From: a virus | Strand: one strand, 5' to 3' | Length of the DNA: 64,000 nt | IMG/VR virus record: IMGVR_UViG_3300045988_122031 | Location: 29,757 to 93,756 of that record | Shown: positions 2,042-55,248 of the stretch, piece after piece | Position numbering within the stretch: position 1 is the stretch's first letter | Layout of the letters: every line of letters starts with the position of its first letter | Position numbers and translations under genes: made by a program | The notes under the pieces: generated by a model | Database searches by the model: none | Told to the model about the DNA's origin: nothing | What the model saw: only the letters and a program-made list of their open reading frames with translations

Positions 2042-4069
2042 TTAAAGTTGTCCTAACTGAGCAAAAGAATATTCAATCATCTTCTTATCCATGTCTGGAT
2101 TCATCATGGCGTGAACAACTTTCTTATCATAATCAATGCCAGTAATGTATCCAATATCTCCATTAAATGTGTTTCTTTCATAGTCATTACTGGTTTGAAG
2201 CACTTTATCTCCCACATAAAACTTCTTTGTTTTGCCATATGTAACAAACCTTGCATTGGATTTATTTTTATACAATTCTTTCTGAATTGCTACATTAAGT
2301 TCTTCTGTAGAGTTTATGCAACCTGACTTACGAGGAGAGATTACAACCACATTATCCATACCGTCTTGTTTAACACACGTCATGAACTGCTTTACAACCA
2401 AATTAAAAATATTCTCACGATTATTTCTGAAAATGTAAAACATATCATGCAGCTCTCCATGAACTTGTTTAGCACTAAAATCCTCAATTGGAGAAATTGC
2501 TCTACGCACTTTTCTAGCATCACTAAGAATACCAGACTTTTCTGCTTGTCTCATTGGCTTCGTTAATTGCACTGAATCTAACTCATCCATTTTGAGTAGA
2601 TCAGAGAAAATGTTACCATATCCAATTGGTGGTAACTGCATATGATCTCCGCTAATAATAATCTTTGTACCTGGACGAATTGCCAAAAGTAATTGATAGA
2701 ACAACCCTGCATTAACCATACTTGCTTCGTCTAAAAGAACTACATCAATTGGTAACGGATTGTCAGCATCGTGCATAAACGAGTCTACGCCTTGTGCTTC
2801 AAGTAATCGATGAATAGTTCTCGCTTCTAATCCTGTTGCTTCTTGGATTCTCTGTGCCGCCTTAGCAGATAACGCACATGCAGCAATGCTATAATTTCGT
2901 TTCTTATAACATCTGATAATTGGTTTTAATAAGGTAGTTTTACCCGTTCCAGCCTCACCACTAATTAAAACAACATTTGTCTGTAATGCAGTGTAGATGC
3001 CTTTGTTTTGCTCTTCGCTGAACGTAAAACCTTCTTCTTTTTCAACTTCAGCAATAACTTGTCCAATTTCGTTTACAGTGATTATCTCTTTTTTCTTGGT
3101 AGAATTAGTATCTCTGCGTTCTTGCAACAATGCCAGTATATTCATTTCTGTGTCATGGTACTTTTTCAAACCAATTAGTTCTCCACTAACATAGATGTCT
3201 GGAGGAAAATCATTTTCAACATAATCGTCAAATATATGTAAACATTCACCAACTGTTGCACTAACTTCTGATCGCAACGTGGCAATCGCCATATATGTAT
3301 GTCCGTCACTCTCGCCAAGATTCGTTAAATAATACGTCATAAAATAATCAAGTCGATACTTGGAATCTCTCAATTCTGGACGGATCTTTAAAGCAATATC
3401 ATCAACTTTCTTAAATCCAAGACCTCTGATCTTAGTTAAAATGTAAGGATTTGTGTTGATTTTATACTTTAACTTTTCTGGATCTGGCTCAGCTTCTACC
3501 AATTTCTTAATCATATTAAAAGTAATGCCATGAGGCTGTAGCATAACTACAACCTCGGAAATCACATAATTATTAATGATCTTCTCTCTGAGCTTCGCCC
3601 ATGTCTTGTTGCCAAGTCCTTTAATCATAGATGTGTCAATCGTCTTACATTTTCCTGCCATAACATCCTCAATAATATTTGGATATTCAGCAAGCAAGCT
3701 TTCAGCAATTGATTCTTTCGCTTGTGTTTTTAAAAACATTAACTGATCAGTCTGTGTTTTTGGAACGTCTGCAACAACCGAAATCGGTTTATATTGATAT
3801 TCATGATATTTTTGAGAATAAATACATGTCGCTTTTACATTATACTTTGTCCCAATATATAACTGTTGAACTTCTCCAACAAGTTTACTTGCAACATATT
3901 CTTTATCTCCTGAGTCATCAAATTTATTATCATTGTATGGACTGAATTGTGGTATTTGGTCTTTTGTACAAAACGCATAGATACCAAACATTGATTCTTC
4001 ATTATAAAATATCTGATATGTAGGAATCATTTCAAACTCGCATACCTTTCCGCATGTCTGACTCTCCAT
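2042..4069 (-). CDS. RecD/Pif1-like SF1B DNA helicase (AAA_30 type), N-terminal and central part, terminated by an in-frame TAA
   Basis: Walker A ISGEAGTGKTTLL, Walker B VVLLDEASMV and motif GDHMQLPPIG. The protein continues in frame into 1817..2041 after a single stop. Confidence 0.8.
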   Translation of the reverse strand: MESQTCGKVCEFEMIPTYQIFYNEESMFGIYAFCTKDQIPQFSPYNDNKFDDSGDKEYVASKLVGEVQQLYIGTKYNVKATCIYSQKYHEYQYKPISVVADVPKTQTDQLMFLKTQAKESIAESLLAEYPNIIEDVMAGKCKTIDTSMIKGLGNKTWAKLREKIINNYVISEVVVMLQPHGITFNMIKKLVEAEPDPEKLKYKINTNPYILTKIRGLGFKKVDDIALKIRPELRDSKYRLDYFMTYYLTNLGESDGHTYMAIATLRSEVSATVGECLHIFDDYVENDFPPDIYVSGELIGLKKYHDTEMNILALLQERRDTNSTKKKEIITVNEIGQVIAEVEKEEGFTFSEEQNKGIYTALQTNVVLISGEAGTGKTTLLKPIIRCYKKRNYSIAACALSAKAAQRIQEATGLEARTIHRLLEAQGVDSFMHDADNPLPIDVVLLDEASMVNAGLFYQLLLAIRPGTKIIISGDHMQLPPIGYGNIFSDLLKMDELDSVQLTKPMRQAEKSGILSDARKVRRAISPIEDFSAKQVHGELHDMFYIFRNNRENIFNLVVKQFMTCVKQDGMDNVVVISPRKSGCINSTEELNVAIQKELYKNKSNARFVTYGKTKKFYVGDKVLQTSNDYERNTFNGDIGYITGIDYDKKVVHAMMNPDMDKKMIEYSFAQLGQL

Positions 4070-15304: not shown

Positions 15305-15346
15305 CGTCAAAAAAATAATAAAAGTTGTTTGCGTTATTCAACTTTT
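15305..15346 (-). terminator. Rho-independent terminator after the sigma factor gene
   Basis: On the minus strand AAAAGTTG-(11 nt)-CAACTTTT is followed by AUUAUUUUUUUGA. Confidence 0.55.
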
Positions 15347-15887
15347 ATAATCTGGAAAATGTTGTTGATCGCATTTTTTTAATCTTTTGTTGTATCGCTT
15401 GAAATGATGTACCAAACATTTTTGCAATTTCTTGATATGTATAACCTTTTGATTTTAAATCAACAATCATTCTGTCCTTATTATTTAGTGTGTAACATTT
15501 ATCTTGAAAATTCAACTTGAAAATAATATTTTTTTCAAAATTTTCTTCATCCTTTAAAAAAAATGAATTTTCATTTTTGTCTTCATCCCAATCATCTAAC
15601 ATATGATTATATGAAATAGTATTCATATCACCCTTTCTTCTCTGCCGAAATCTGTATTTGTTATATACCGTTATTTCATTTTGTATACATAAATACGCAT
15701 ATGTCGAAAATGATTTAGATCGTGTTTTATCATAATCAATTGCTGCCTTACACAACCCAATAGCAGCGAATCCATAATAGTCATCAAAATCTTGTCTGCG
15801 GACACCGCATTTTGTCATAGCAGAGTAAATCAAATTATGATTTTGTTCTACCAATTTTCTCTGTTCGTCATTTAATTTCAACGACAT
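15345..15887 (-). CDS. Phage sigma-70 family RNA polymerase sigma factor (regions 2 and 4)
   Basis: MSLKLNDEQRKLVEQNHNLIYSAM...GLCKAAIDYD (region 2) and YTYQEIAKMFGTSFQAIQQKIKKM (region 4 HTH). It is a paralog of 21909..22460. Confidence 0.75.
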   Translation of the reverse strand: MSLKLNDEQRKLVEQNHNLIYSAMTKCGVRRQDFDDYYGFAAIGLCKAAIDYDKTRSKSFSTYAYLCIQNEITVYNKYRFRQRRKGDMNTISYNHMLDDWDEDKNENSFFLKDEENFEKNIIFKLNFQDKCYTLNNKDRMIVDLKSKGYTYQEIAKMFGTSFQAIQQKIKKMRSTTFSRL

Positions 15888-15916
15888 TTTCTCCTTTATT
15901 TACTTGTGTTTATGTG

Positions 15917-16192
15917 TTAATCATGAACAAATGGTTCCCATTCTCTGGGTGGAGCATTTAGCTTCCAATATTTCGGTAATGAAACTCTTACCCTGCAACC
16001 TCTAACTACATTATAAAAATCACAATTTAAGCAATTCTCATAATCGACACTTCTACTTCCCATATCATGAACTCTGTTTGCCTTACAGATATTTTGAACT
16101 ACGCTTAAAGCATCATATATCTCATCAGGTGTATACTCTTTATAATTTTTCTCGCTCACAATATCACCTCCTACTTCTTGAATGCTCGCCAT
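15917..16192 (-). CDS. Small Cys-rich (putative zinc-binding) protein, paralog A
   Basis: YTPDEIYDALSVVQNICK...CLNCDF...RGCR shares an N-terminal TPxEIxxAL.V.Q..C motif with 16171..16404. Confidence 0.5.
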   Translation of the reverse strand: MASIQEVGGDIVSEKNYKEYTPDEIYDALSVVQNICKANRVHDMGSRSVDYENCLNCDFYNVVRGCRVRVSLPKYWKLNAPPREWEPFVHD

Positions 16193-16404
16193 ATAGTATC
16201 TGGATCATCATCAATTTCCCAATTACAAGGGTCAAGGTCTCTAGGTGTACAAGTCGGGGCTTCGCCCATCATCGTGCATAAAGGACAGGCTTTACAATCT
16301 TCGTCTGCTCCATCAAGATGGTATTCGCACGTATCCTGAATCACATGCAGTGCATTTAAAATTTCTTTTGGCGTATGTAATTTACTTTTCTTTTCTTTCT
16401 CCAT
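16171..16404 (-). CDS. Small Cys-rich (putative zinc-binding) protein, paralog B
   Basis: Start reassigned to MEKEKK (RBS AAGGAG 7 nt upstream). HTPKEILNALHVIQDTCEYH...CKACPLC...C. Confidence 0.5.
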   Translation of the reverse strand: MEKEKKSKLHTPKEILNALHVIQDTCEYHLDGADEDCKACPLCTMMGEAPTCTPRDLDPCNWEIDDDPDTIWRAFKK

Positions 16405-16891
16405 TATATTTCTCCTTAATTGTATCAATTGCAAACTGCAACGCCTCATCTTGAATTGTTGTATAATCATTTATGGAAATCATATCATTTAATACATGGA
16501 TGTACTGTGCCGCATTGGTTTTAGTAGATAGTAGCTTTTCGGAATCTCGATTCTCTATATCATTCACAGTCAATGTATCGCACGCATTAAGACACGAATC
16601 CACCAATTCGTTCCATAACGACAAAACAAAATATCTCGCTGCAATCGGATGACGTTTTAGTTCATCAACTAGCGGTTTCGTCAGTTGAAACGTATCAAGA
16701 AAACTACATATATTATAATATTTTCGAAGTATATGATCTTGCTTATTTGATGATTCAACCTCGCCTATTGAAAGTGCTAAACTATTTCTTAATTCTTCTA
16801 ACTGCCCGTATGTAAATACTTTATTATTTTCTTTTTTCACTCTGTCTTTCCCATTCCTTTCTCCAATAATCATCTTCTTTGATATTGCCAA
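16382..16891 (-). CDS. Hypothetical protein
   Basis: 169-aa ORF on the coding strand of the operon. Confidence 0.5.
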   Translation of the reverse strand: MAISKKMIIGERNGKDRVKKENNKVFTYGQLEELRNSLALSIGEVESSNKQDHILRKYYNICSFLDTFQLTKPLVDELKRHPIAARYFVLSLWNELVDSCLNACDTLTVNDIENRDSEKLLSTKTNAAQYIHVLNDMISINDYTTIQDEALQFAIDTIKEKYNGERKEK

Positions 16892-17465
16892 GTTTCACAT
16901 ATTGATCTGGTTTAATTTCTCCTAAATCAATCATATCAGAACCATAAACAGATAACATCTGCCACGCCAAATCTTCATCATTATAAATAATCAAATATAC
17001 GTCTTCGTCATCATCAACCAATTGTACAACATCATATTCGAATTCATTTTCTCTGCCAGTTGATTGACAAATGGTATCTTCTTTTACTTGACACCCATAC
17101 ATACCACTATGGTCTGCTGGTTCACATCTTGGGAATAATAACCATCCTTTACCGATGTATGTCCCAGTAATCCACTTATTAGTATCATAATTCTGTGCCT
17201 TGCAGTATATACCACAATTTTGATAGGTTTGATTCATTGCTAAATTCCCCTTTCGCTCTTTTGTAATCCGATATACTCTGTCCATAGCTTCCATGTTATG
17301 ATCATGTACCTCTGGAATAAAAATTTCCCTTCCACAAATCTTACAAATACCATATGTCTCTGCAAACGAAATTCTTTCACCTATCATTGGAACAATTGTA
17401 AACCTTGTTTCAAGTTCATAATCAACTAGCTTTCGACAATATGCGCACAAAAGTTTCTTCTCCAT
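16824..17465 (-). CDS. Hypothetical protein with N-terminal Cys pairs (zinc-ribbon-like)
   Basis: CAYCRKLV...CKICGREI. Confidence 0.5.
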   Translation of the reverse strand: MEKKLLCAYCRKLVDYELETRFTIVPMIGERISFAETYGICKICGREIFIPEVHDHNMEAMDRVYRITKERKGNLAMNQTYQNCGIYCKAQNYDTNKWITGTYIGKGWLLFPRCEPADHSGMYGCQVKEDTICQSTGRENEFEYDVVQLVDDDEDVYLIIYNDEDLAWQMLSVYGSDMIDLGEIKPDQYVKLGNIKEDDYWRKEWERQSEKRK

Positions 17466-17470
17466 CTACA

Positions 17471-17866
17471 TTACTCTCCTAACTCAATCCCACAAATTTC
17501 TTTCGCCAGTTCTCTTACCGCAACACGTTCTTCACAAACACAATATCCATCATCTTCATCAATTGTAAGATCATTATTGTACATGAATTTTAGTAACTCT
17601 TCTAAGGTATGAATATCTTTTTTGACTTCATTTACCTTGGCATAAAACTCTCGTTTTAGAACCGCTTTTATTTCTGATTCAGTGCGATATATCTCTTCTA
17701 AAAGAACCATATATAAACCATGCGTTATACTGTCTTGTATCATTACATATATTAGATCGCCAAGACATTTAATCTCCGTAATGATTCCAGACTTAACAGT
17801 ATATGGTTCATCGTACCAAGCAAAATACACTTCGTTTCCAACTTTGAAATCGCCCATCTTTATCAC
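17471..17866 (-). CDS. Hypothetical protein
   Basis: 131-aa ORF. Confidence 0.5.
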   Translation of the reverse strand: MIKMGDFKVGNEVYFAWYDEPYTVKSGIITEIKCLGDLIYVMIQDSITHGLYMVLLEEIYRTESEIKAVLKREFYAKVNEVKKDIHTLEELLKFMYNNDLTIDEDDGYCVCEERVAVRELAKEICGIELGE

Positions 17867-17872
17867 CTCTTT

Positions 17873-18076
17873 CTAACACCAAGCCCACAAAATTACTCCA
17901 ATTAAGCATGATACATGGAACATAACCCATAAGAAAAATATCCTACATTCAGTTAAATCCCAATTATATGAATCATCACAACCAGTAATTATGAACCAAA
18001 CCCAAGCAGCTACATACAACAATACGCACACAGCAATTGAAAATATTCTGATTGTTAATTTAACATTATCTATCAT
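17873..18076 (-). CDS. Small hydrophobic membrane protein
   Basis: Two predicted TM segments (FSIAVCVLLYVAAWVWFIITG; FLWVMFHVSCLIGVILWAW). Confidence 0.4.
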   Translation of the reverse strand: MIDNVKLTIRIFSIAVCVLLYVAAWVWFIITGCDDSYNWDLTECRIFFLWVMFHVSCLIGVILWAWC

Positions 18077-18085
18077 TGCATCCTA

Positions 18086-18625
18086 CTATTCATTGACTTC
18101 AACTGGCTCTAATGTGTCTTTATTTTTAACAAAATCCAACATGACTTCTTCTTGTATATCTTCATATAATTTGTCATAGTATGTTTTCTTTAATTTAAAA
18201 AATGCTACTTTCAAATCTTCACAATAAAACCTACCTCTTTGCCCATTTTTAATTTGCCGATAAGGATTTTCAGGGTGCTCATACACAACAGAAATTGTTC
18301 CATCTCCATCATATGTAGTCTCCATCGAAATACTACCATTCTTAAGAGCATGATACATAACCTGATTATCTTCAATAAACCCATATGGATGCCACTCATA
18401 ATCATCAGGAATAACAGTTGGTTCAATAACATCAAAATATTTCTCTAATTCATCTCCAGACATCACACCAAGATGCACTCCATTCGCACCAAATCTAAAA
18501 TTGATAACATTTTCATCTGTATCAATCTTAACAATCTCGCATACCTCGCCAAGATTATCGAAGCATCCCATTGGTTTCTTTAATTTAATCTTATGGTCTG
18601 TTGTCAATTCATTAATATTAATCAT
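18086..18625 (-). CDS. Hypothetical protein
   Basis: 179-aa ORF. Confidence 0.5.
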   Translation of the reverse strand: MININELTTDHKIKLKKPMGCFDNLGEVCEIVKIDTDENVINFRFGANGVHLGVMSGDELEKYFDVIEPTVIPDDYEWHPYGFIEDNQVMYHALKNGSISMETTYDGDGTISVVYEHPENPYRQIKNGQRGRFYCEDLKVAFFKLKKTYYDKLYEDIQEEVMLDFVKNKDTLEPVEVNE

Positions 18626-19653
18626 ACTGCCACCTTACCTTTCTTGCTAAAATGTTCATTCCATGCATCGACCGCTTCTTGCTGATCAGCGGTTAGAGGA
18701 TCATTGAATCTTTGCAGTGCTTGTACGATTCGTCCATTTTGTATTTCAATCGTCACTAACGATTTTTCTGGTTCTTTTACTCTTCTCAAGAACATAATAT
18801 GGCATTCGCCATCAATGACTCGATCTATGTAACTTGCCACACAATTATTCTGCTGTACCGCTTCGTCTTTAATGTCTTGAGTGGAGTCTGGATAAAAGAA
18901 TCTCAGTCCTTTATATGTAAATTCGTATTCTTTATTAATACGGCTCTTAAAGACTTCTTCCGAAAATTCTTTTTGTAATCTTTTGTAATTTCTTGTGACA
19001 ATATCCATTGTTGTTTTGAAATGTCTTGGATATCTATCAAATTTATGACTGATTGCGTCCATCATACGGGCATAATCACGCAATTCTCTGAGCAACCAAT
19101 TTATAGCAACAATTGCTTCAAACGTCATTATCTTATCCATATAAACAAATACATCTGCGAGATTATATCCATAATCCTTATTTAAAGACGTTAATATTTC
19201 CATATAATAATCTGTGCTACGATTAGCAAAAAAGAACATTAAGTCGGATTGAGTCACTGTCATATATTGTGTTTGAAGAATTGTTTGAACATAATCTGGA
19301 TATTTTTTGTAAAAATCAACAAACTTGTTATTTAATAAGCGGTTCATCTTCACACCAATACAATAATTTCTTAACCATTTTGGTACTTCATTAATTGAAT
19401 ATCTGAAATCTTCTGCAATTTGTTTGTGCGTAAACCCTATAGCGAAGAACTGCTCACATACTGAATATTGACTTGCATATTCAAACAAAGTTCCCAAATT
19501 ATAATCAATGAAGCCACATGTAGTTCTTCCCATTTCACAATTTCTTCGCCAATTTACATATTTTAGAAACTCTGCATAATGTGGATCGGACACAAACAAT
19601 TTATCCAATTCATCAGCTGAATGTCCAGACAGAATATTATTTAAAGCTTTCAC
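18622..19653 (-). CDS. Hypothetical protein (start uncertain; the in-frame upstream extension has no canonical start codon)
   Basis: 343-aa ORF from a GTG. A protein-like in-frame sequence continues upstream to 19767. Confidence 0.5.
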   Translation of the reverse strand: MKALNNILSGHSADELDKLFVSDPHYAEFLKYVNWRRNCEMGRTTCGFIDYNLGTLFEYASQYSVCEQFFAIGFTHKQIAEDFRYSINEVPKWLRNYCIGVKMNRLLNNKFVDFYKKYPDYVQTILQTQYMTVTQSDLMFFFANRSTDYYMEILTSLNKDYGYNLADVFVYMDKIMTFEAIVAINWLLRELRDYARMMDAISHKFDRYPRHFKTTMDIVTRNYKRLQKEFSEEVFKSRINKEYEFTYKGLRFFYPDSTQDIKDEAVQQNNCVASYIDRVIDGECHIMFLRRVKEPEKSLVTIEIQNGRIVQALQRFNDPLTADQQEAVDAWNEHFSKKGKVAV

Positions 19654-19814
19654 TTTCTTACCACTTTTGCCATAACAATCACCATTTGATAAATCATATT
19701 TGCAAGTTTTACCATCATCCAGATGGAAAATAATAAACTTGCCTTGTTTTTCTGCTGTGATAGTGCTTCAACTCCTTTCATTTTGCCTCAAATTCCTATT
19801 TTATATCATTGCAT

Positions 19815-20285
19815 TTACACCCATGCTCGAATACTACAATGACCCATCTTAAGATAAAAATCATATATATATGTACATAATTTTTTCTCATCGTCAAATA
19901 TCTTGTCAGACATTTGCACCCACCAAGCATGTAATCTTTTCTTTTCTGTATTCAAAACCAGTACAGGAATATGACGTTCATATGCAATTGCAATCTCCAT
20001 AGATGTACCAATGCTTTTCGGATCATTCGCATTTACTACAACAAGATCACTATTTCTAACAAAATTTGTATCAAATCTCATTACTTCTTTTTCTGTATCA
20101 TGCAACTCTGTTTGAAAATTGTAATAATCAACAGGGTTAATAATATTAACTTCTTTCATATTAACATTAAGAATCCTACGCATAGCAATAATTTGATTGC
20201 AAATTCTTTCTCTCCAAGCATTCTGCTCTTCAAACGATAAATCCTGCATACCGCCTGCTAAATAAATCTGAAATACATTACTCAC
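19815..20285 (-). CDS. Nucleoside 2-deoxyribosyltransferase-like (NDT/Rcl-DNPH1 fold) protein
   Basis: FQIYLAGGM (N-terminal YLAG motif) and GTSMEIAIAYERHIPVLVL (GTxxExGxA catalytic Glu region). Confidence 0.55.
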   Translation of the reverse strand: MSNVFQIYLAGGMQDLSFEEQNAWRERICNQIIAMRRILNVNMKEVNIINPVDYYNFQTELHDTEKEVMRFDTNFVRNSDLVVVNANDPKSIGTSMEIAIAYERHIPVLVLNTEKKRLHAWWVQMSDKIFDDEKKLCTYIYDFYLKMGHCSIRAWV

Positions 20286-20827
20286 TGTTTCATTTCTCCT
20301 TTCACAACATAGGACTCAATCAATCCTTTTCTTAGTCGATCATTCATATCCTGAATCGCTTCCTCAATTGTCTTAAATTTACATGAACAAATATGCTCTT
20401 TGGTCAAATTAACAAATGAATATGTGCCATCTGACTTGTTCCTAAAAATAACAACCACTGATTCTTCTCCATCTGGTTTCTTAACAATAAATCTGAGCGC
20501 ACCTTTTTGTGTTTCCTTTTTATTTTCAAGTAAAATAGTATAATTGATTTTTAACCAGCTACCATATGCCCATACTTGTTTAATTTTTTCTTCAGCATTT
20601 TGAAGTACACAATGTCTATAATCAATACTCTCGATATTATAGACAAGTGATTCAATGGCTTCTTTATCATTTTTTATTGTAATTTGACCATGCGTTCCAT
20701 TTCTTCCATCTGCAATCGCATCAATAAATTCTTCTACAGTATATTCTTTATCAAGCACAACATCATATTTAGTATATTTATCGTTATCAGAACGTGGGCG
20801 TTTTATTAATTTAAACATCCCTATCAC
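20282..20827 (-). CDS. Hypothetical protein
   Basis: 181-aa ORF. Confidence 0.5.
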   Translation of the reverse strand: MIGMFKLIKRPRSDNDKYTKYDVVLDKEYTVEEFIDAIADGRNGTHGQITIKNDKEAIESLVYNIESIDYRHCVLQNAEEKIKQVWAYGSWLKINYTILLENKKETQKGALRFIVKKPDGEESVVVIFRNKSDGTYSFVNLTKEHICSCKFKTIEEAIQDMNDRLRKGLIESYVVKGEMKQ

Positions 20828-21005
20828 CTACTTTCTTATCAAATGTTTCTTGCAAATTTAACCAGAACTGCCCATCATCAGCAAACCCATAATGGTCTGC
20901 CATTGTTTTCGCAAATTCTTTTGTAACACTTTGTAATCCGTCAATCAGCCCTTGCACATAATCAACATCTATGCCAATTTTACTCGCAAGCTGATAAGGA
21001 GTCAT
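20811..21005 (-). CDS. HigA-like HTH (XRE family) domain protein; the conserved N-terminal segment lies upstream of the first ATG
   Basis: YQLASKIGID...VQGLIDG...EFAKTMADHYGFADDGQFWLNLQETFD (HigA FWLNLQ hallmark). The in-frame upstream sequence FHPGECLEEFVESCR matches the HigA HPGE motif but has no start codon. Confidence 0.5.
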   Translation of the reverse strand: MTPYQLASKIGIDVDYVQGLIDGLQSVTKEFAKTMADHYGFADDGQFWLNLQETFDKKVGDRDV

Positions 21006-21081
21006 CCTACAAGATTCAACAAATTCTTCTAAGCATTCGCCAGGATGAAAGCAATTTCGTCTCCAATCTTTACATACATTT

Positions 21082-21912
21082 TTACACCATTCCTCTCACA
21101 ATTCGTTCATTTGTTGTCATCAAGAAGTTATTGATACGATCCCAGTCTGGTTCGTCTGGCAAAGTTGTAGTTTTAAATGCGTTTTCAAAAGCTTGATAAA
21201 AGCAATCAAATAGCTCCCCAAAATCATTAGATGGAACAAATCGTTTGATTATATCATCAGTCGCTCTTCCTTTGATCACCATACTACTACAATAAGCTCC
21301 GTCTCTCAGTAATAATAAACTTTGCCTGAGAAGCTCGAAGTTGTAAGTTTGCATTGTAGATGTTGTCAATAACGCTGTTCCATTGTGTATTACTCTAATT
21401 ACATGCATCATCGCCTTACAAACCTTCTTCTTTACTAAATTAATCTGATCTTCTGTTAAGATAGTTTCGTCATACAATCTGATTGTTTGTTCTTCTAAAG
21501 CCTGTGAATATCCGTTAAATGCATACCAAATTTTCTTTGATAAAAACATATCTCGATTTTTAATCAACTCCATACCAATATCGGATACATATAAATAGCA
21601 TTCTGGACGATTATACAACAACTCTAATGCTGTAGGATTCCCTTTGGCACATAAGTCAATATATTTTTTTAATGCATACATTACAGTATCAGTGTCTTTG
21701 CTGGCGTCTACCGATTTCATACTATTATTCAACAAAATCTCTCTTTTATCACTAAGGAAAACACCACGTAAATCAATGTCAGAATCCTCTGTATTTGTTC
21801 CGTAAGCATAACTTCCACCTAGTGTGAGAAAAGCGATTTTATGAGGATAATCTCGCAAAAAATCATACTCTGTAGACGAGTTTATGTAATCTTTCACTTC
21901 TTCAATTGTCAT
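21082..21912 (-). CDS. Pol-beta superfamily nucleotidyltransferase (PF10127-like predicted NTase)
   Basis: LGGSYAYGTNTEDSDIDLRGVF fits GS-x(10)-DxD. Confidence 0.6.
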   Translation of the reverse strand: MTIEEVKDYINSSTEYDFLRDYPHKIAFLTLGGSYAYGTNTEDSDIDLRGVFLSDKREILLNNSMKSVDASKDTDTVMYALKKYIDLCAKGNPTALELLYNRPECYLYVSDIGMELIKNRDMFLSKKIWYAFNGYSQALEEQTIRLYDETILTEDQINLVKKKVCKAMMHVIRVIHNGTALLTTSTMQTYNFELLRQSLLLLRDGAYCSSMVIKGRATDDIIKRFVPSNDFGELFDCFYQAFENAFKTTTLPDEPDWDRINNFLMTTNERIVRGMV

Positions 21913-22460
21913 GATCTCACCGCCTTTGCCCTATGCATTATTTTTTTAATATTACCAAGTTGCCAACTTACCCATTGAATACTCTTTCCAAATTCTTTAG
22001 CTATGTATTTATGTTCAATATCATCAAGTAACATATATATAATTTTCTTCTGCTTGTCTGACAATTTGTTAAATTCTCCTTGATAATATACTGTTGTTAA
22101 TGCTTGACTCTCTACGGCATCGTTACTCACAAGCAAACTACCAATTGTTAATTCTTCTGCGTCAATTCTTTCGTCAACAGGTGTATCCAATGATTCCGCA
22201 TTTCTGTTCATTTTCTCTGTTGGGCTATGCCATTTTATATAATATTTATTAATTTCTGACTGTAATACCCATCTAAAATACGTCCCAAAATTACCTTTAG
22301 ACTCATCCCATTTTAATGCTGCTTTGCAAATTGCCATACGACCAAGATCCATATATGTATCAAAATCTTTAAATTTTGTAAAATACTTCTCATGCAAATG
22401 CCAAATCAAAGAATAATTATCTTCAATCAGCTTTCGCTGTTCATCATTTAGTTTCTTCAC
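21909..22460 (-). CDS. Second phage sigma-70 family sigma factor
   Basis: MKKLNDEQRKLIEDNYSLIWH... (region 2) and YIAKEFGKSIQWVSWQLGNIKKIM (region 4). Its N-terminus is near-identical in pattern to 15345..15887. Confidence 0.7.
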   Translation of the reverse strand: MKKLNDEQRKLIEDNYSLIWHLHEKYFTKFKDFDTYMDLGRMAICKAALKWDESKGNFGTYFRWVLQSEINKYYIKWHSPTEKMNRNAESLDTPVDERIDAEELTIGSLLVSNDAVESQALTTVYYQGEFNKLSDKQKKIIYMLLDDIEHKYIAKEFGKSIQWVSWQLGNIKKIMHRAKAVRS

Positions 22461-43996: not shown

Positions 43997-44034
43997 AATA
44001 TACCATACTTTTTGCACCCTGTCAATAGGTGCAA
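43997..44034 (-). promoter_or_regulatory. Copy 2 of the palindromic promoter element (TTGACA-17-TATATT inside TTGCACC-N10-GGTGCAA)
   Basis: Minus strand reads tTGCACCTATTGACAGGGTGCAAaaagtatggTATATT, immediately upstream of the MazF-like gene. It is about 45 bp conserved with 1770-1810. Confidence 0.55.
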
Positions 44035-52239: not shown

Positions 52240-53334
52240 CTATTCTTCTGAAATAATTTCCACCGCAGCTTCATAAAATCTGTTGTATAAAGTTGCATTA
52301 GTTTTAATAAGCTGAGATTTAGGAATGCCATGAGCATACTCATCCCAGTTAACACCATTCTCTGTCATCTTAGTGTAGATTTTCCGATAAACAGACGTTC
52401 CGCCTTTAGATTTATTTCCAATATGATTAGCATAATTAGTAATCTTGATTTTCATTTCTTCCCAATCAGGCTGTGCGTTCTCTTTACGGAACTGTCGCAG
52501 AAGTTTTTCCAGTGAATTGACTAGCAGATCAGGATATTTGTCATAACAAAGATCAATCGTTGGTACATTGCCTCTTTCTCTGATGTTATATTTCTCTTTA
52601 TATTCTTTCCGATCCTGTTCCCACACAATACCATATGTGTTAGTCAAATAATTATAAGCTTCTCTTAAAATATCTCTAGTGGTAGTTCCTAGTTCATCTG
52701 ATTCTTTCAAAATATCTGCGATAATTCCATAGACGTTAGATTTCCATTCATTCATCTTATATTCTGCGATTACAGCTTCTTTATCCATCACTGGAATATC
52801 TTTCGTAGGTTTAGCGATCTGCTTATAAAATTCCTTACGTTCAGCTTTCATTTCTTTAACGATATCTGCCAACTGATTAAATCCTTCTATAGTAATCTTA
52901 TACAGGCGTTCATTGTTTCTTTCCATCTGCTTCATAAGCTCTGTCTGCTCTGTAAGAAACTGCTCTACTGTTGTTACAGGAGTTCCTGTTCTTAATTTTC
53001 CATGACGATAAGCCTGTACAATATCCCATACCCAGTCCATAAAGGTGTTTGCCTTTGGCTGTTTACTCCATCTACAAATTTCCATCACGCCACGTTCATT
53101 ATAAAGTATAGTGTCATATTTTTTGTCGTCAGTAGTCGACAATTTGTCGACCACTGAATGTTTATCCAACCTATCTTTATGTCTTTCGTGTATCCTATAA
53201 ATTGCATCCTTCGGATTATCGTACTCCAGTGCCTCTCCAATCTGCTTTCTTGTCATCCAAATATCATCCTCAGCACTATAAAAATCACACGCTATATCGT
53301 TAAATTTTTCCGTTTTAACTAACTGTAGGTTCAT
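52240..53334 (-). CDS. Bro-N domain protein (antirepressor-like)
   Basis: FNDIACDFYSAEDDIWMTRKQIGEALEYDNPKDAIYRIHERH matches the Bro-N pattern. Confidence 0.6.
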   Translation of the reverse strand: MNLQLVKTEKFNDIACDFYSAEDDIWMTRKQIGEALEYDNPKDAIYRIHERHKDRLDKHSVVDKLSTTDDKKYDTILYNERGVMEICRWSKQPKANTFMDWVWDIVQAYRHGKLRTGTPVTTVEQFLTEQTELMKQMERNNERLYKITIEGFNQLADIVKEMKAERKEFYKQIAKPTKDIPVMDKEAVIAEYKMNEWKSNVYGIIADILKESDELGTTTRDILREAYNYLTNTYGIVWEQDRKEYKEKYNIRERGNVPTIDLCYDKYPDLLVNSLEKLLRQFRKENAQPDWEEMKIKITNYANHIGNKSKGGTSVYRKIYTKMTENGVNWDEYAHGIPKSQLIKTNATLYNRFYEAAVEIISEE

Positions 53335-53560
53335 TCTTTACCTTCCTTTCTAAATTTCCTTATTTTTCTCTACACTCATTATTTTTGTATAGTTATATTC
53401 CGTAAACCAATAGGAATAAAATCAACATTTAATTCCAACTATTAGTGTGCCAATCCTAATAGAAACCTATTCTATTCCTATTAGTTCTCTATATAATCAA
53501 CACCTTACCTATTAACAATTCTATGCTTAGTTAATCATTAATTTGTGTATAATAAATTTG
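53335..53560. repeat. Iteron-like repeat cluster (CCTATT/AATAGG and CTATTAG/CTAATAG units, TTCCGT units): regulatory hub or candidate origin
   Basis: ccAATAGGaat, aaCTATTAGtg, tcCTAATAGaa, aCCTATTctattCCTATTAGtt and taCCTATTAAc, all within about 120 bp. They lie between two transcription modules. Confidence 0.45.
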
Positions 53561-53636
53561 ACAAAGAACCGACCTGCCAAATCGGTTCCTGCCAAATATT
53601 TCCGTAAAATAAAAAGAACCTTCCGTTCGGTTCTTT
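53552..53636 (-). terminator. Tandem Rho-independent terminators ending the upstream minus-strand module
   Basis: On the minus strand AAAGAACC-(8 nt)-GGTTCTTT + UUAUUUU, then GAACCGA-(9 nt)-TCGGTTC + UUUGUCAAAUUUAUU. Confidence 0.6.
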
Positions 53637-53656
53637 GCCAAAATTATTATATGGAA

Positions 53657-53893
53657 TTATTTAATAAATGCCGTTCCTATTTTTATAATAAACCAAGTCC
53701 ATAAAATAATAGTAGTTGGTTTATCAATAACTCCTATTGTATCATCTAGTAAGTCAGTATATTTCTTTAAGTTTGTATTGTAATATTCATCAATTAATTT
53801 CAGAGCTGCATTAACAATAAAAACAATAGTCTCTAATGTAATCATTACTCCTACAAATACATCTGAATACCGAATAATCTGTTCTAATTCCAT
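53657..53893 (-). CDS. Small membrane protein
   Basis: Two hydrophobic segments. Confidence 0.45.
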   Translation of the reverse strand: MELEQIIRYSDVFVGVMITLETIVFIVNAALKLIDEYYNTNLKKYTDLLDDTIGVIDKPTTIILWTWFIIKIGTAFIK

Positions 53894-55248
53894 ACTTCAT
53901 CATCCTCATCTTCATTATCATATAAATTTTCCACAGGTGCCGTCTGTTGGAACATATCTGTTGGAGATAGGTTTCTAGCCTCGCACATTGCACAAAAGAC
54001 TTTCAATACCTTATCCCATTCATGTTCTTGAATCCACTGAAGAAATGGTTTCTTTCCACGTTTCTTAACATCAATCTGATATTTATACTGTAAGTTCTTA
54101 TAAAGCTCATTCCACATAACAGAGAATTGCGTTCCTGTTACCGCAGCCAACTTCCTAATCCCAGCGTTCATCTTATTGCGATCATCCCATGTTAAAATTT
54201 CCGCTGCTAATAACTTGTTATCATTCTGCAACTTCTGATTCTCTTCTTTAAGTTCTTTATTTTGTGTTCGCAGATCGGTTACCATAGCAAGCTTGACATC
54301 CTCAGAAAATGACGGGAAGTAGTGTTCAATGAACTGTGACTCTTTCCCAAAGTCAACTGCACCGCCTGTCTTACGGATGTTTTTAAGATATTCTTTAATC
54401 TGTTTCTTCATCTGCTTTGCAATCGGCTTACGTGATTGCATACACACTTCATAGAGTCCATCTTCTGTGAGAAACCAAAATGGAACTTTAGTTTTTCCAT
54501 CAGTGTCTAATTGACCTAAATTCTGAGTGCCAAGATTGTTGGCAGTCAAAATTTTAGTCTTAAATTTTTCATCTGAATCAACAGATTGTAACATCATGTC
54601 TGTCTTATATTTTCCATTATCTCTCTTACTGTAATCAATCCATTCTGCAACATCTCTCGCAAGGAATAACGGATCTTCAATACTTCTATACAGATCAATT
54701 CGTCTGCCTAAAATTTCCGTTGTGTCAACAAGCTGCACACCTGCCTCTACCTGTTCTTGTTCTCTCTGTTCTTCTATCGTGATATAATCGTTGATAAAAA
54801 CATAATATCTTACGCTCTCAGCAAGGTTTGAAGTTTCCATCAGTAAAGATAATCTGATTAAGCATTTAAGAGTGAACACCTTAGCACCCTTATAACCGAA
54901 TGAGATATTTAATCCGTTCGGATACGTTACCATGATTCTTCCCTTCTGTTTTTCCGTTGTTGCATCCTGACCATCAATAATCTCCTGCACTGTCTTAACT
55001 TCCATCCCATCTTCCAAAAATTCTTTACGATACTTCGTACACAATCGTTTGACTTCCTCAACATCTCCATCAAAAAATCGTGCTACCTGTTCCGTAGTGA
55101 TATAATCTCGTCCAGGGAGCCACGGAATCGGCTTGATCGTAACTTGTTTTAAAAGTTCTGTGTTCTGCACCAGTTCATCTCTCTTTGCCTTATCCAAAAT
55201 TGGATCGCAAGGGATTTCCATTTCGTTTAGATTCATAATTAATTCCAC
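53884..55248 (-). CDS. Antirepressor-like protein (ORF6N/Bro-N-type N-domain plus KilA-C/ANT-like region)
   Basis: FLARDVAEWIDYSK... and PFWFLTEDGLYEVCMQSRKPIAKQMKKQI are typical of phage antirepressor families. Confidence 0.55.
   Translation of the reverse strand: MELIMNLNEMEIPCDPILDKAKRDELVQNTELLKQVTIKPIPWLPGRDYITTEQVARFFDGDVEEVKRLCTKYRKEFLEDGMEVKTVQEIIDGQDATTEKQKGRIMVTYPNGLNISFGYKGAKVFTLKCLIRLSLLMETSNLAESVRYYVFINDYITIEEQREQEQVEAGVQLVDTTEILGRRIDLYRSIEDPLFLARDVAEWIDYSKRDNGKYKTDMMLQSVDSDEKFKTKILTANNLGTQNLGQLDTDGKTKVPFWFLTEDGLYEVCMQSRKPIAKQMKKQIKEYLKNIRKTGGAVDFGKESQFIEHYFPSFSEDVKLAMVTDLRTQNKELKEENQKLQNDNKLLAAEILTWDDRNKMNAGIRKLAAVTGTQFSVMWNELYKNLQYKYQIDVKKRGKKPFLQWIQEHEWDKVLKVFCAMCEARNLSPTDMFQQTAPVENLYDNEDEDDEVWN

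Follow-up and report, generated by a model that had tools for sequence, protein, structure and literature searches.

The stretch of viral DNA considered here, referred to as the window, comprises 64,000 nucleotides of the IMG/VR virus record IMGVR_UViG_3300045988_122031 (positions 29,757 to 93,756 of that record). Its minus strand carries two short cysteine-rich genes, termed mini2 and mini1, which lie in tandem directly upstream of a sigma factor gene, sigma1. The phage belongs to a human-gut group that we call SPbeta-like, because the Pfam names YorF and YorH derive from Bacillus phage SPbeta. Both minis are tandemly duplicated, diverged members of a widespread family of proteins of 55-85 amino acids (aa) in Clostridia-type phages. 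In the following, we describe the locus and the family, compare the minis with known regulators of sigma factors and discuss what these proteins might bind.

The initial annotation had placed two paralogous, co-oriented, Cys-rich genes just upstream of a sigma factor gene, and both the coordinates and a BLASTP match between the two products (E=2e-8, 29% identity over 76 residues) bear this out. The feature as first delimited ends at 16404, exactly at the mini2 start, and the motifs quoted at the time are present, i.e., TPxEIxxAL.V.Q..C, CLNCDF and RGC in mini1, and CKACPLC and TC in mini2. The sizes, given as 80-90 aa, are corrected to about 77 aa (mini2) and 80 aa (mini1). The full open reading frame (ORF) of mini1 spans 15917-16192, and an alternative ATG at 16192 would yield 91 aa; the GTG at 16159 is preceded at a distance of 5 nt by the ribosome-binding site (RBS) AGGAGGTG, and in an alignment of homologues the relatives begin at the matching M-x-EKNY position.

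The genes of the locus are tightly packed. The spacers measure 11 nt between mini2 and mini1 and 29 nt between mini1 and sigma1, and mini2 overlaps the upstream 169-aa ORF by 23 nt. No terminator-like site was found between the 213-aa ORF, the 169-aa ORF, mini2, mini1 and sigma1. At the end of sigma1, a hairpin of the form AAAGTTG-N11-CAACTTT is followed by the T-run TATTATTTTTTT (RNAfold, -4.7 to -7.2 kcal/mol); it also occurs in 40 related loci, and a stricter consensus terminator scan did not call it. Past the hairpin, a gap of 211 nt precedes replication genes. Given the tight spacing and the lack of a terminator between the genes, mini2 and mini1 are very probably co-transcribed with sigma1, as the initial annotation had supposed, and the spacing suggests that they come second to last in an early/middle transcription unit, which ends in sigma1 and the terminator. 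All long ORFs of the window lie on the minus strand (GC content 29-37%), and the window holds neither a third sigma gene nor a third mini.

Table 1. Features of the mini-sigma locus and of other parts of the window
Feature	Position	Strand	Remarks
mini2	16171-16404	minus	77 aa; ATG start at 16404; RBS AAGGAGA; four-cysteine family member; elements MEKEKKSKLHTPKEILNALHVIQDTC...CKACPLC...C...NWEI...WRAFKK
mini1	15917-16159	minus	80 aa; probable GTG start at 16159; diverged paralog of mini2
sigma1	15345-15887	minus	180 aa; sigma-70-family, region 2 and region 4; size of an extracytoplasmic function (ECF) sigma factor
Terminator-like A/U-rich hairpin and T-run	15309-15345	minus	overlaps first base of the sigma1 stop codon
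169-aa ORF	16382-16891	minus	directly upstream of mini2; part of the tightly packed string; variable or absent in relatives
213-aa ORF	16824-17465	minus	N-terminal CxxC...CxxC ribbon; variable or absent in relatives
sigma2	21909-22460	minus	183 aa; sigma-70-family; 6.0 kb upstream of sigma1; no adjoining mini
Largest non-coding stretch of the window	29830-30506		intergenic gap
Candidate early promoter	29884-29912	minus	TTGACA-17-TATATT
Candidate early promoter	43997-44025	minus	TTGACA-17-TATATT with TG extension
NAMPT, flotillin/SPFH, Bro-N entry	33905-35374, 31256-32716, 52240-55248		also L001:537-1156

The close homologues of mini2 number 22 and are all metagenomic (61-97% identity). A profile of the mini2 relatives together with mini1, searched against 1.8 billion representative proteins, retrieved 374 clusters at 50% identity (E<=1e-3), and most of their members measure 58-70 aa. 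The family is catalogued as PHROG 9264 (function unknown), which is matched by 40 of 63 aligned members with a best E-value of 2.4e-7. Mini2 alone reaches E=0.061 over residues 13-64; mini1 alone does not match PHROG 9264 and is tied in via its BLASTP similarity to mini2. The hidden Markov model (HMM) built from A2 includes both window proteins, and its E-values for mini1 and mini2 are thus not independent evidence. PHROG 9264 proteins resemble the minis in size (about 60-80 aa) and cysteine pattern, and the entry comes without name, structure or function. Compared with it, the window minis are outliers, as they are longer (77-80 versus about 62 aa), occur in tandem and lie ahead of a sigma gene. 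Pfam, NCBIfam and PADLOC models gave no match to the four-cysteine family, and tblastn with one canonical member returned nothing at E<=1e-3. Literature searches for the PHROG 9264 identifier and for phage sigma factors, anti-sigma factors and zinc yielded no description of the family.

In an alignment of 63 sequences, the family signature reads M-K-H-T-x-E-E-I-L-x-A-L-x-V-I-x-D-x-C - x(4-17) - C-x-x-C-P-[F/L] in its N-terminal part and x(7-13) - C - x6 - P-x-x-W - x(7-10) - W-[R/K]-A-F-end in its C-terminal part. Invariant positions are, in mini2 numbering, L19, C26, C37, C40, C52 and W62. Conservation of the motif in related phages, a check proposed with the initial annotation, thus extends to all four cysteines across the family, and 37 of the 63 members contain exactly four. 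The second and third cysteines are two residues apart in 59/62 members, and PF or PL follows this knuckle in 52/62. Mini2 has every element of the signature. Mini1 keeps the four cysteines, PxxW and W-x-P-F, while CLNCDF takes the place of CxxCP[FL]. In some mini1-type variants (P0188 and P0190; alignment A5), the third cysteine is replaced and CPF becomes YPF; all of these YPF variants have a further cysteine, placed two residues ahead of Cys2 (C-G-C), as if one ligand of the presumed metal site had been swapped for another. Tandem duplication took place independently in the SPbeta-like group, in locus L083 and in the Clostridium perfringens plasmid pCPC216_2, and two-domain fusions exist as well (P0031 and P0145).

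The AlphaFold2 model of mini2 (predicted local distance difference test, pLDDT, 78; predicted template modelling score, pTM, 0.63) comprises a helix at residues 12-31, a knuckle at 37-39 and a hairpin at 43-52. Accordingly, the domain starts with an amphipathic helix that has Cys1 at its end; next come the CxxC-P-[F/L] knuckle with Cys2 and Cys3 and a short hairpin with Cys4 at its end, and a PxxW...W[R/K]AF tail forms the C-terminus. The predicted mini fold has no significant match in PDB or BFVD. Conservation is confined almost entirely to cysteines and residues of the hydrophobic core; the surface varies and is mildly acidic. The family shows a median isoelectric point of 5.2 and a median net charge of -3 (mini2, -7). 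DNA binding by the minis was therefore rejected. Both genes are under purifying selection, with ratios of non-synonymous to synonymous divergence (dN/dS) of 0.29 for mini2 and 0.24 for mini1, and positive selection was rejected as well. As far as the sequences go, a metal (zinc-type) site formed by the four invariant cysteines is plausible, and to this extent the zinc-binding clusters of the initial annotation hold, while the sequence motif of zinc-dependent anti-sigma factors does not occur in the minis.

The sigma-70-family membership of the two sigma genes is well supported. Sigma1 scores 36.6 bits against Pfam Sigma70_r2 (cut-off 24) and 65.8 bits against TIGR02937 (cut-off 42.9), and it matches PHROG 351 at E=4.8e-20. 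Sigma2, which the initial annotation had recognized as a second paralog, reaches 45.6 bits against TIGR02937 and matches PHROG 351 at E=6.7e-18; it is 28% identical to sigma1 (E=1e-19). The region 4 matches of both proteins align and lie below the cut-off. A sigma cascade of sigma1 and sigma2, as proposed initially, is plausible. Comparison of the window gene with the homologous loci L001-L053 and L093-L141 reveals that sigma1 is a mosaic. Its residues 1-52 are nearly invariant, including synonymous sites (synonymous divergence, dS, 0.07), and the remainder is divergent (dS 0.64). For the C-terminal two thirds there are at least three alleles in otherwise similar phages, 63% and 49% identical to the window allele. 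This suggests a recombination boundary within the sigma1 gene, and the alleles possibly differ in promoter specificity.

A separate observation concerns locus L138 (IMGVR_UViG_3300045988_139404, 2495-3031; an 82-kb contig), which carries an in-frame chimeric sigma gene and corresponds to 15345-22460 of the window. Here, the first 34 sigma2 codons are joined to sigma1 from DYYGFAAIG onward, and the junction is an 11-nt identity common to sigma1 and sigma2 (AAGATTTTGAT). The approximately 6.5 kb between sigma2 and sigma1, including both minis, are missing. L138 looks like a natural deletion variant; the junction occurs in a single contig, and an assembly chimera is the alternative.

Within the SPbeta-like group, the mini-to-sigma cassette is a stable, lineage-specific arrangement. 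Both minis lie directly upstream of sigma1 in 48/48 sigma1-type IMG/VR loci, and a further 33 loci found via the minis show the same order. Two more distant loci have a single mini ahead of sigma. In L009 the mini is 61% identical, and in L177 the mini is 41%, the sigma factor 47% and the next replication protein 72% identical. The genes upstream of the minis vary, with products of 213 and 169 aa in the window, 216 aa in L011, 132 aa in L174, 134 aa in L009 and 144 aa in L177. The 213- and 169-aa genes are thus absent or replaced in these four loci, while the mini-sigma junction remains. The gene after sigma varies too, and only the mini-sigma junction is constant. As to the replaced genes themselves, the ribbon of the 213-aa ORF is weakly similar to the zinc ribbons of MqsA-type antitoxins (E=5e-4) and also to PHROG 18167, and the C-terminal half of its product forms a separate 134-aa gene in L009.

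The alleles of minis and sigma1 do not vary together and reassort freely. The minis occur as several alleles, with mini1 differing by up to 61%, and one identical mini1 protein is paired with two sigma1 alleles that are only 63% identical to each other. Mantel tests of mini1 or mini2 against sigma1 C-terminal distances both gave r=-0.05 (p about 0.8), and mini2 against mini1 gave r=0.31 (p=0.006). Since a cognate pair of sigma and anti-sigma factor is expected to co-vary, the null result fits a lack of interaction, or else one of two alternatives, namely that the minis bind the invariant N-terminus of sigma1 or that they bind a host protein.

Outside the SPbeta-like group, the family occurs without an adjoining sigma gene. 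Loci were gathered via degenerate DNA patterns and exact-protein look-ups, which yielded 20 distinct loci, and none of these contains a sigma1- or sigma2-like ORF in the fetched DNA (up to +/-6 kb). Among the 97 proteins encoded by the three genes on each side, the commonest Pfam families are N6_N4_Mtase (six), PAPS_reduct (three) and Lar (two); other neighbours are a C5 methylase, SSB, DnaB, NAD ligase and an integrase. The Sigma70 domain is not among the 25 commonest of the 32 neighbour families, to which these counts refer. In the complete 48-kb genome of the cultured Clostridium phage CS29, the genes for primase and dUTPase flank that of a 57-aa member; the genome has no annotated sigma factor and no match to the sigma HMM, and ten candidate ORFs lack a Sigma70 domain. 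The linear C. perfringens plasmid pCPC216_2, probably a plasmid prophage and likewise devoid of an adjoining sigma gene, carries two copies in tandem, and a third domain forms part of a longer protein; they lie amid genes for a nuclease, RuvC, thymidine kinase, DNA polymerase and an N6-methylase.

The converse search gave a similar picture. No mini lies upstream of distant sigma1 relatives (31-38% identity) in 17 loci, including Enterocloster phage PMBT24, and a mini beside the sigma gene of the nearest cultured relatives, the Enterocloster phages, was accordingly rejected. One of the 17 loci, L151 from an unrelated 44-kb phage, has a family member two genes downstream of its sigma-like gene, beyond a methylase. 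A mini next to sigma2 was never seen. Of about 23 contexts outside the SPbeta-like group, one has a sigma gene within two genes of a family member, and the two do not adjoin. The basic activity of the family is probably independent of phage sigma factors.

Very often, the next gene after the four-cysteine gene in small Clostridia phages belongs to another uncharacterised small family, the products of which start with M-(M)-L-T-K-E-E-C-x-x-A-L and contain E-H-F-x-N-P-P-L-x-F-E-E-L (L018:393-725, L029:9531-9869, L031:4230-4487, L071:13422-13766, L078:2948-3298, L084:2155-2481 and others). A Lar-like zinc-ribbon gene is often third, which results in a recurrent three-gene neighbourhood.

The phage itself is probably a parasite of a gut member of the Clostridia. 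The genes surrounding the cassette code for Pol III alpha, a DHH/RecJ-like protein, DnaB, a YorH-like protein, a Sak4-type ATPase, a YorF-like protein and a RecD2-like helicase. Further genes encode a NAMPT-type nicotinamide phosphoribosyltransferase, a flotillin/SPFH protein and two Bro-N proteins, and close relatives of the phage have two Tad2-like (anti-Thoeris) genes upstream of sigma2; this complement points to a sizeable counter-defence or NAD-salvage repertoire. Searches for tRNA genes found none, and the ten longest ORFs scanned contain no virion-protein domains. Two near-consensus host-type promoters lie in larger intergenic gaps of the window and are candidate early promoters (Table 1).

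The exact mini1 protein (P0023) is found on 627 contigs (1170 index blocks), near-identical DNA is abundant in human gut metagenomes, and the IMG/VR contigs of the SPbeta-like group cluster at 160-170 kb. Among 50,697 phage records there is no DNA-level match in cultured phages, and scans of 185,579 species-representative bacterial genomes (GTDB) with A1 and P0023 found no copies; the element is not a common prophage in species-representative genomes. The nearest cultured relatives of the sigma factor, in Enterocloster phages, are 33% identical, and the nearest helicases, in large C. difficile phages, 27%. The phiCD211-type C. difficile phages were rejected as close relatives, given this helicase identity and a region without mini or sigma.

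What, then, might the four-cysteine proteins do? We lean, by a small measure, towards the view that the family constitutes a Cys4 metal-stapled, acidic and probably dimeric protein-binding module of early/middle infection, with a basic activity that does not depend on a sigma factor. The four invariant cysteines would hold one structural metal ion, most likely Zn(II), with Fe or an Fe-S centre as the alternative, and the metal would staple a domain that may otherwise be too small to fold. The conserved residues fall almost all into the core and the ligand set, and the surface is variable and mildly acidic, which makes the domain look more like a protein-binding scaffold than a DNA-binding protein or an enzyme. 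The independent tandem and fused copies, together with the co-variation of mini2 and mini1, suggest a dimeric unit, which may be a homodimer where a single copy exists and a mini2-mini1 heterodimer at the locus studied here. The lineage-specific target may be host RNA polymerase (RNAP), sigma-A or the invariant N-terminus of sigma1, and a role of the minis in transcription is possible.

Several points weigh against the sigma-independent scaffold. It builds on sequence, a model of medium confidence and gene neighbourhoods, and the latter cover about 23 contexts outside the SPbeta-like group, set against 374 clusters. The AlphaFold2 model of mini1 is poor (pLDDT 61), and the knuckle of the mini1 class is CxxxC, compared to CxxC elsewhere, which is unusual for a rigid zinc knuckle. 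Moreover, the mini-sigma junction survives about 55-60% sequence divergence while both flanks change, and this persistence speaks for a functional coupling to sigma that is closer than the term "lineage-specific arrangement" conveys.

Such coupling is the core of another explanation, namely that the minis serve transcription takeover, either by binding host RNAP or its primary sigma factor in an AsiA-like manner, or by aiding sigma1 as in the gp33-gp34 pair of phage SPO1. The mini-sigma cassette would then be a single functional module. We regard this as unlikely, though it would account for the one junction that is kept, down to 41% and 47% identity, in a changing neighbourhood, as well as for the tight spacing without an intervening terminator. 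Gene 33 of SPO1 (101 aa, annotated as sigma factor accessory) overlaps the sigma gene 34 in the replication region, and the two layouts are alike in that a small gene lies directly upstream of a sigma gene in a Bacillota phage and is co-transcribed with it. Given this precedent, a small gene ahead of a phage sigma gene may encode a helper and not an inhibitor. The likeness is one of layout only: homology of the minis to gp33 was rejected (hhalign probability 0.08%), gp33 has one cysteine and no metal site, and sigma1 is marginally similar to gp34. The invariant residues 1-52 of sigma1 could provide a common docking surface, which would explain the missing allele co-variation, and the sigma-like gene of L151 lies two genes from a family member. 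On the other hand, the PDB and BFVD searches revealed no binder of RNAP or sigma, the minis do not co-vary with the sigma1 alleles, sigma2 is without a mini and L138 keeps the C-terminal part of sigma1 without both minis. Most family members lack a nearby sigma gene and CS29 has none, a distribution with which the host-directed version is still compatible.

Two other groups of small Cys4 proteins linked to transcription were considered and rejected as the identity of the minis. WhiB-like (Wbl) proteins are similarly small (about 80-120 aa) with four invariant cysteines including a CxxC, some of them are encoded by phages, including actinophages, and they bind region 4 of the primary sigma factor. 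The Wbl pattern C-Xn-C-X2-C-X5-C and the G[V/I]WGG motif are absent from the minis, there is no match to the Whib Pfam model, and the gap between the third and fourth cysteine in the family is mostly 7-13 residues and never 5. Furthermore, Wbl proteins are not known outside Actinobacteria and their phages, whereas the four-cysteine family occurs in low-GC Clostridia phages. The Ogr protein of phage P2 and the Delta protein of P4, zinc-finger activators of late genes, are, like the minis, Cys4 phage proteins built on units of roughly 70 aa. Delta consists of two Ogr units, duplicated in tandem and covalently joined, which parallels the tandem and fused copies in the four-cysteine family. Ogr, however, is basic and binds DNA, whereas the family is acidic; in addition, there is no match to the Ogr_Delta Pfam model, and cysteine spacing and hosts differ.

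Quite improbable, in our estimation, is a role as accessory factor in DNA metabolism or counter-defence, e.g., by inhibiting a nuclease, a restriction protein or a repair protein of the host, with the proximity to sigma1 being incidental. The neighbourhoods outside the SPbeta-like group speak for it, as they include DNA methylases (7 of 97 neighbours), PAPS-reductase-like proteins, Lar restriction-alleviation proteins, SSB, DnaB and ligase, and the family gene resides in nucleotide-metabolism modules with NrdD, dUTPase, ThyA and ligase in CS29 and L016. The setting of the pCPC216_2 copies is of the same kind, the small size and acidic nature are shared with several known protein inhibitors, and Tad2-like anti-defence genes lie nearby in phage relatives. 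Yet this is guilt by association in regions that consist of mixed small genes, no match to PADLOC models or to known anti-defence families was obtained, and the conserved mini-sigma junction is left unexplained.

The initial annotation had pointed to a "classic layout of zinc-dependent anti-sigma factors", and in this sense the minis would be specific for sigma1 and hold it inactive until a signal arrives. The resemblance to zinc-dependent anti-sigma (ZAS) factors such as RsrA, ChrR, RsiW and RslA lies in small, co-oriented genes, which adjoin an ECF-sized sigma gene in the SPbeta-like group but not in the 20 other loci, CS29 or pCPC216_2, and in conserved cysteines that include a CxxC. The usual order in ECF systems is sigma gene first and anti-sigma gene second, whereas the minis precede sigma1. 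Within the SPbeta-like group, no sigma-specific pairing is visible, and most relatives of the minis reside in phages without sigma. ZAS factors are defined by the motif H-x3-C-x2-C in a helical anti-sigma domain (PMC3177212). This motif is absent from mini1 and mini2, where the residue four positions before the first knuckle cysteine is Asp and Ala, respectively; histidine occupies this position in 6/62 family members. Neither zf-HC2 nor any other anti-sigma Pfam model matches the minis or the family, and the predicted fold does not match the helical anti-sigma domain. The anti-sigma idea thus derives from gene order and nothing else; we consider it very unlikely and conclude that the minis are not ZAS-type anti-sigma factors.

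The most far-reaching reading would turn the cassette into a new class of Cys4 metal-dependent RNAP regulators, in which a mini2-mini1 heterodimer would time or enforce the change from host to phage transcription. We give little credence to this reading. Docking would occur at the invariant N-terminal region of sigma1, at host sigma-A or at the core polymerase. If true, the whole PHROG 9264 family would consist of RNAP takeover factors in Clostridia phages, possibly responsive to redox state or oxygen via the cysteine cluster.

As matters stand, the minis extend a catalogued yet uncharacterised family, an ordinary one among small phage proteins, by two new members that arose by duplication, and their link to sigma is interesting but lineage-restricted. 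With a binding partner identified for the family, a recurrent "dark" gene found in gut and rumen phages could be annotated, and if the partner turned out to be RNAP or a sigma factor, the four-cysteine proteins would represent a new type of transcription-takeover factor in phages of Bacillota.

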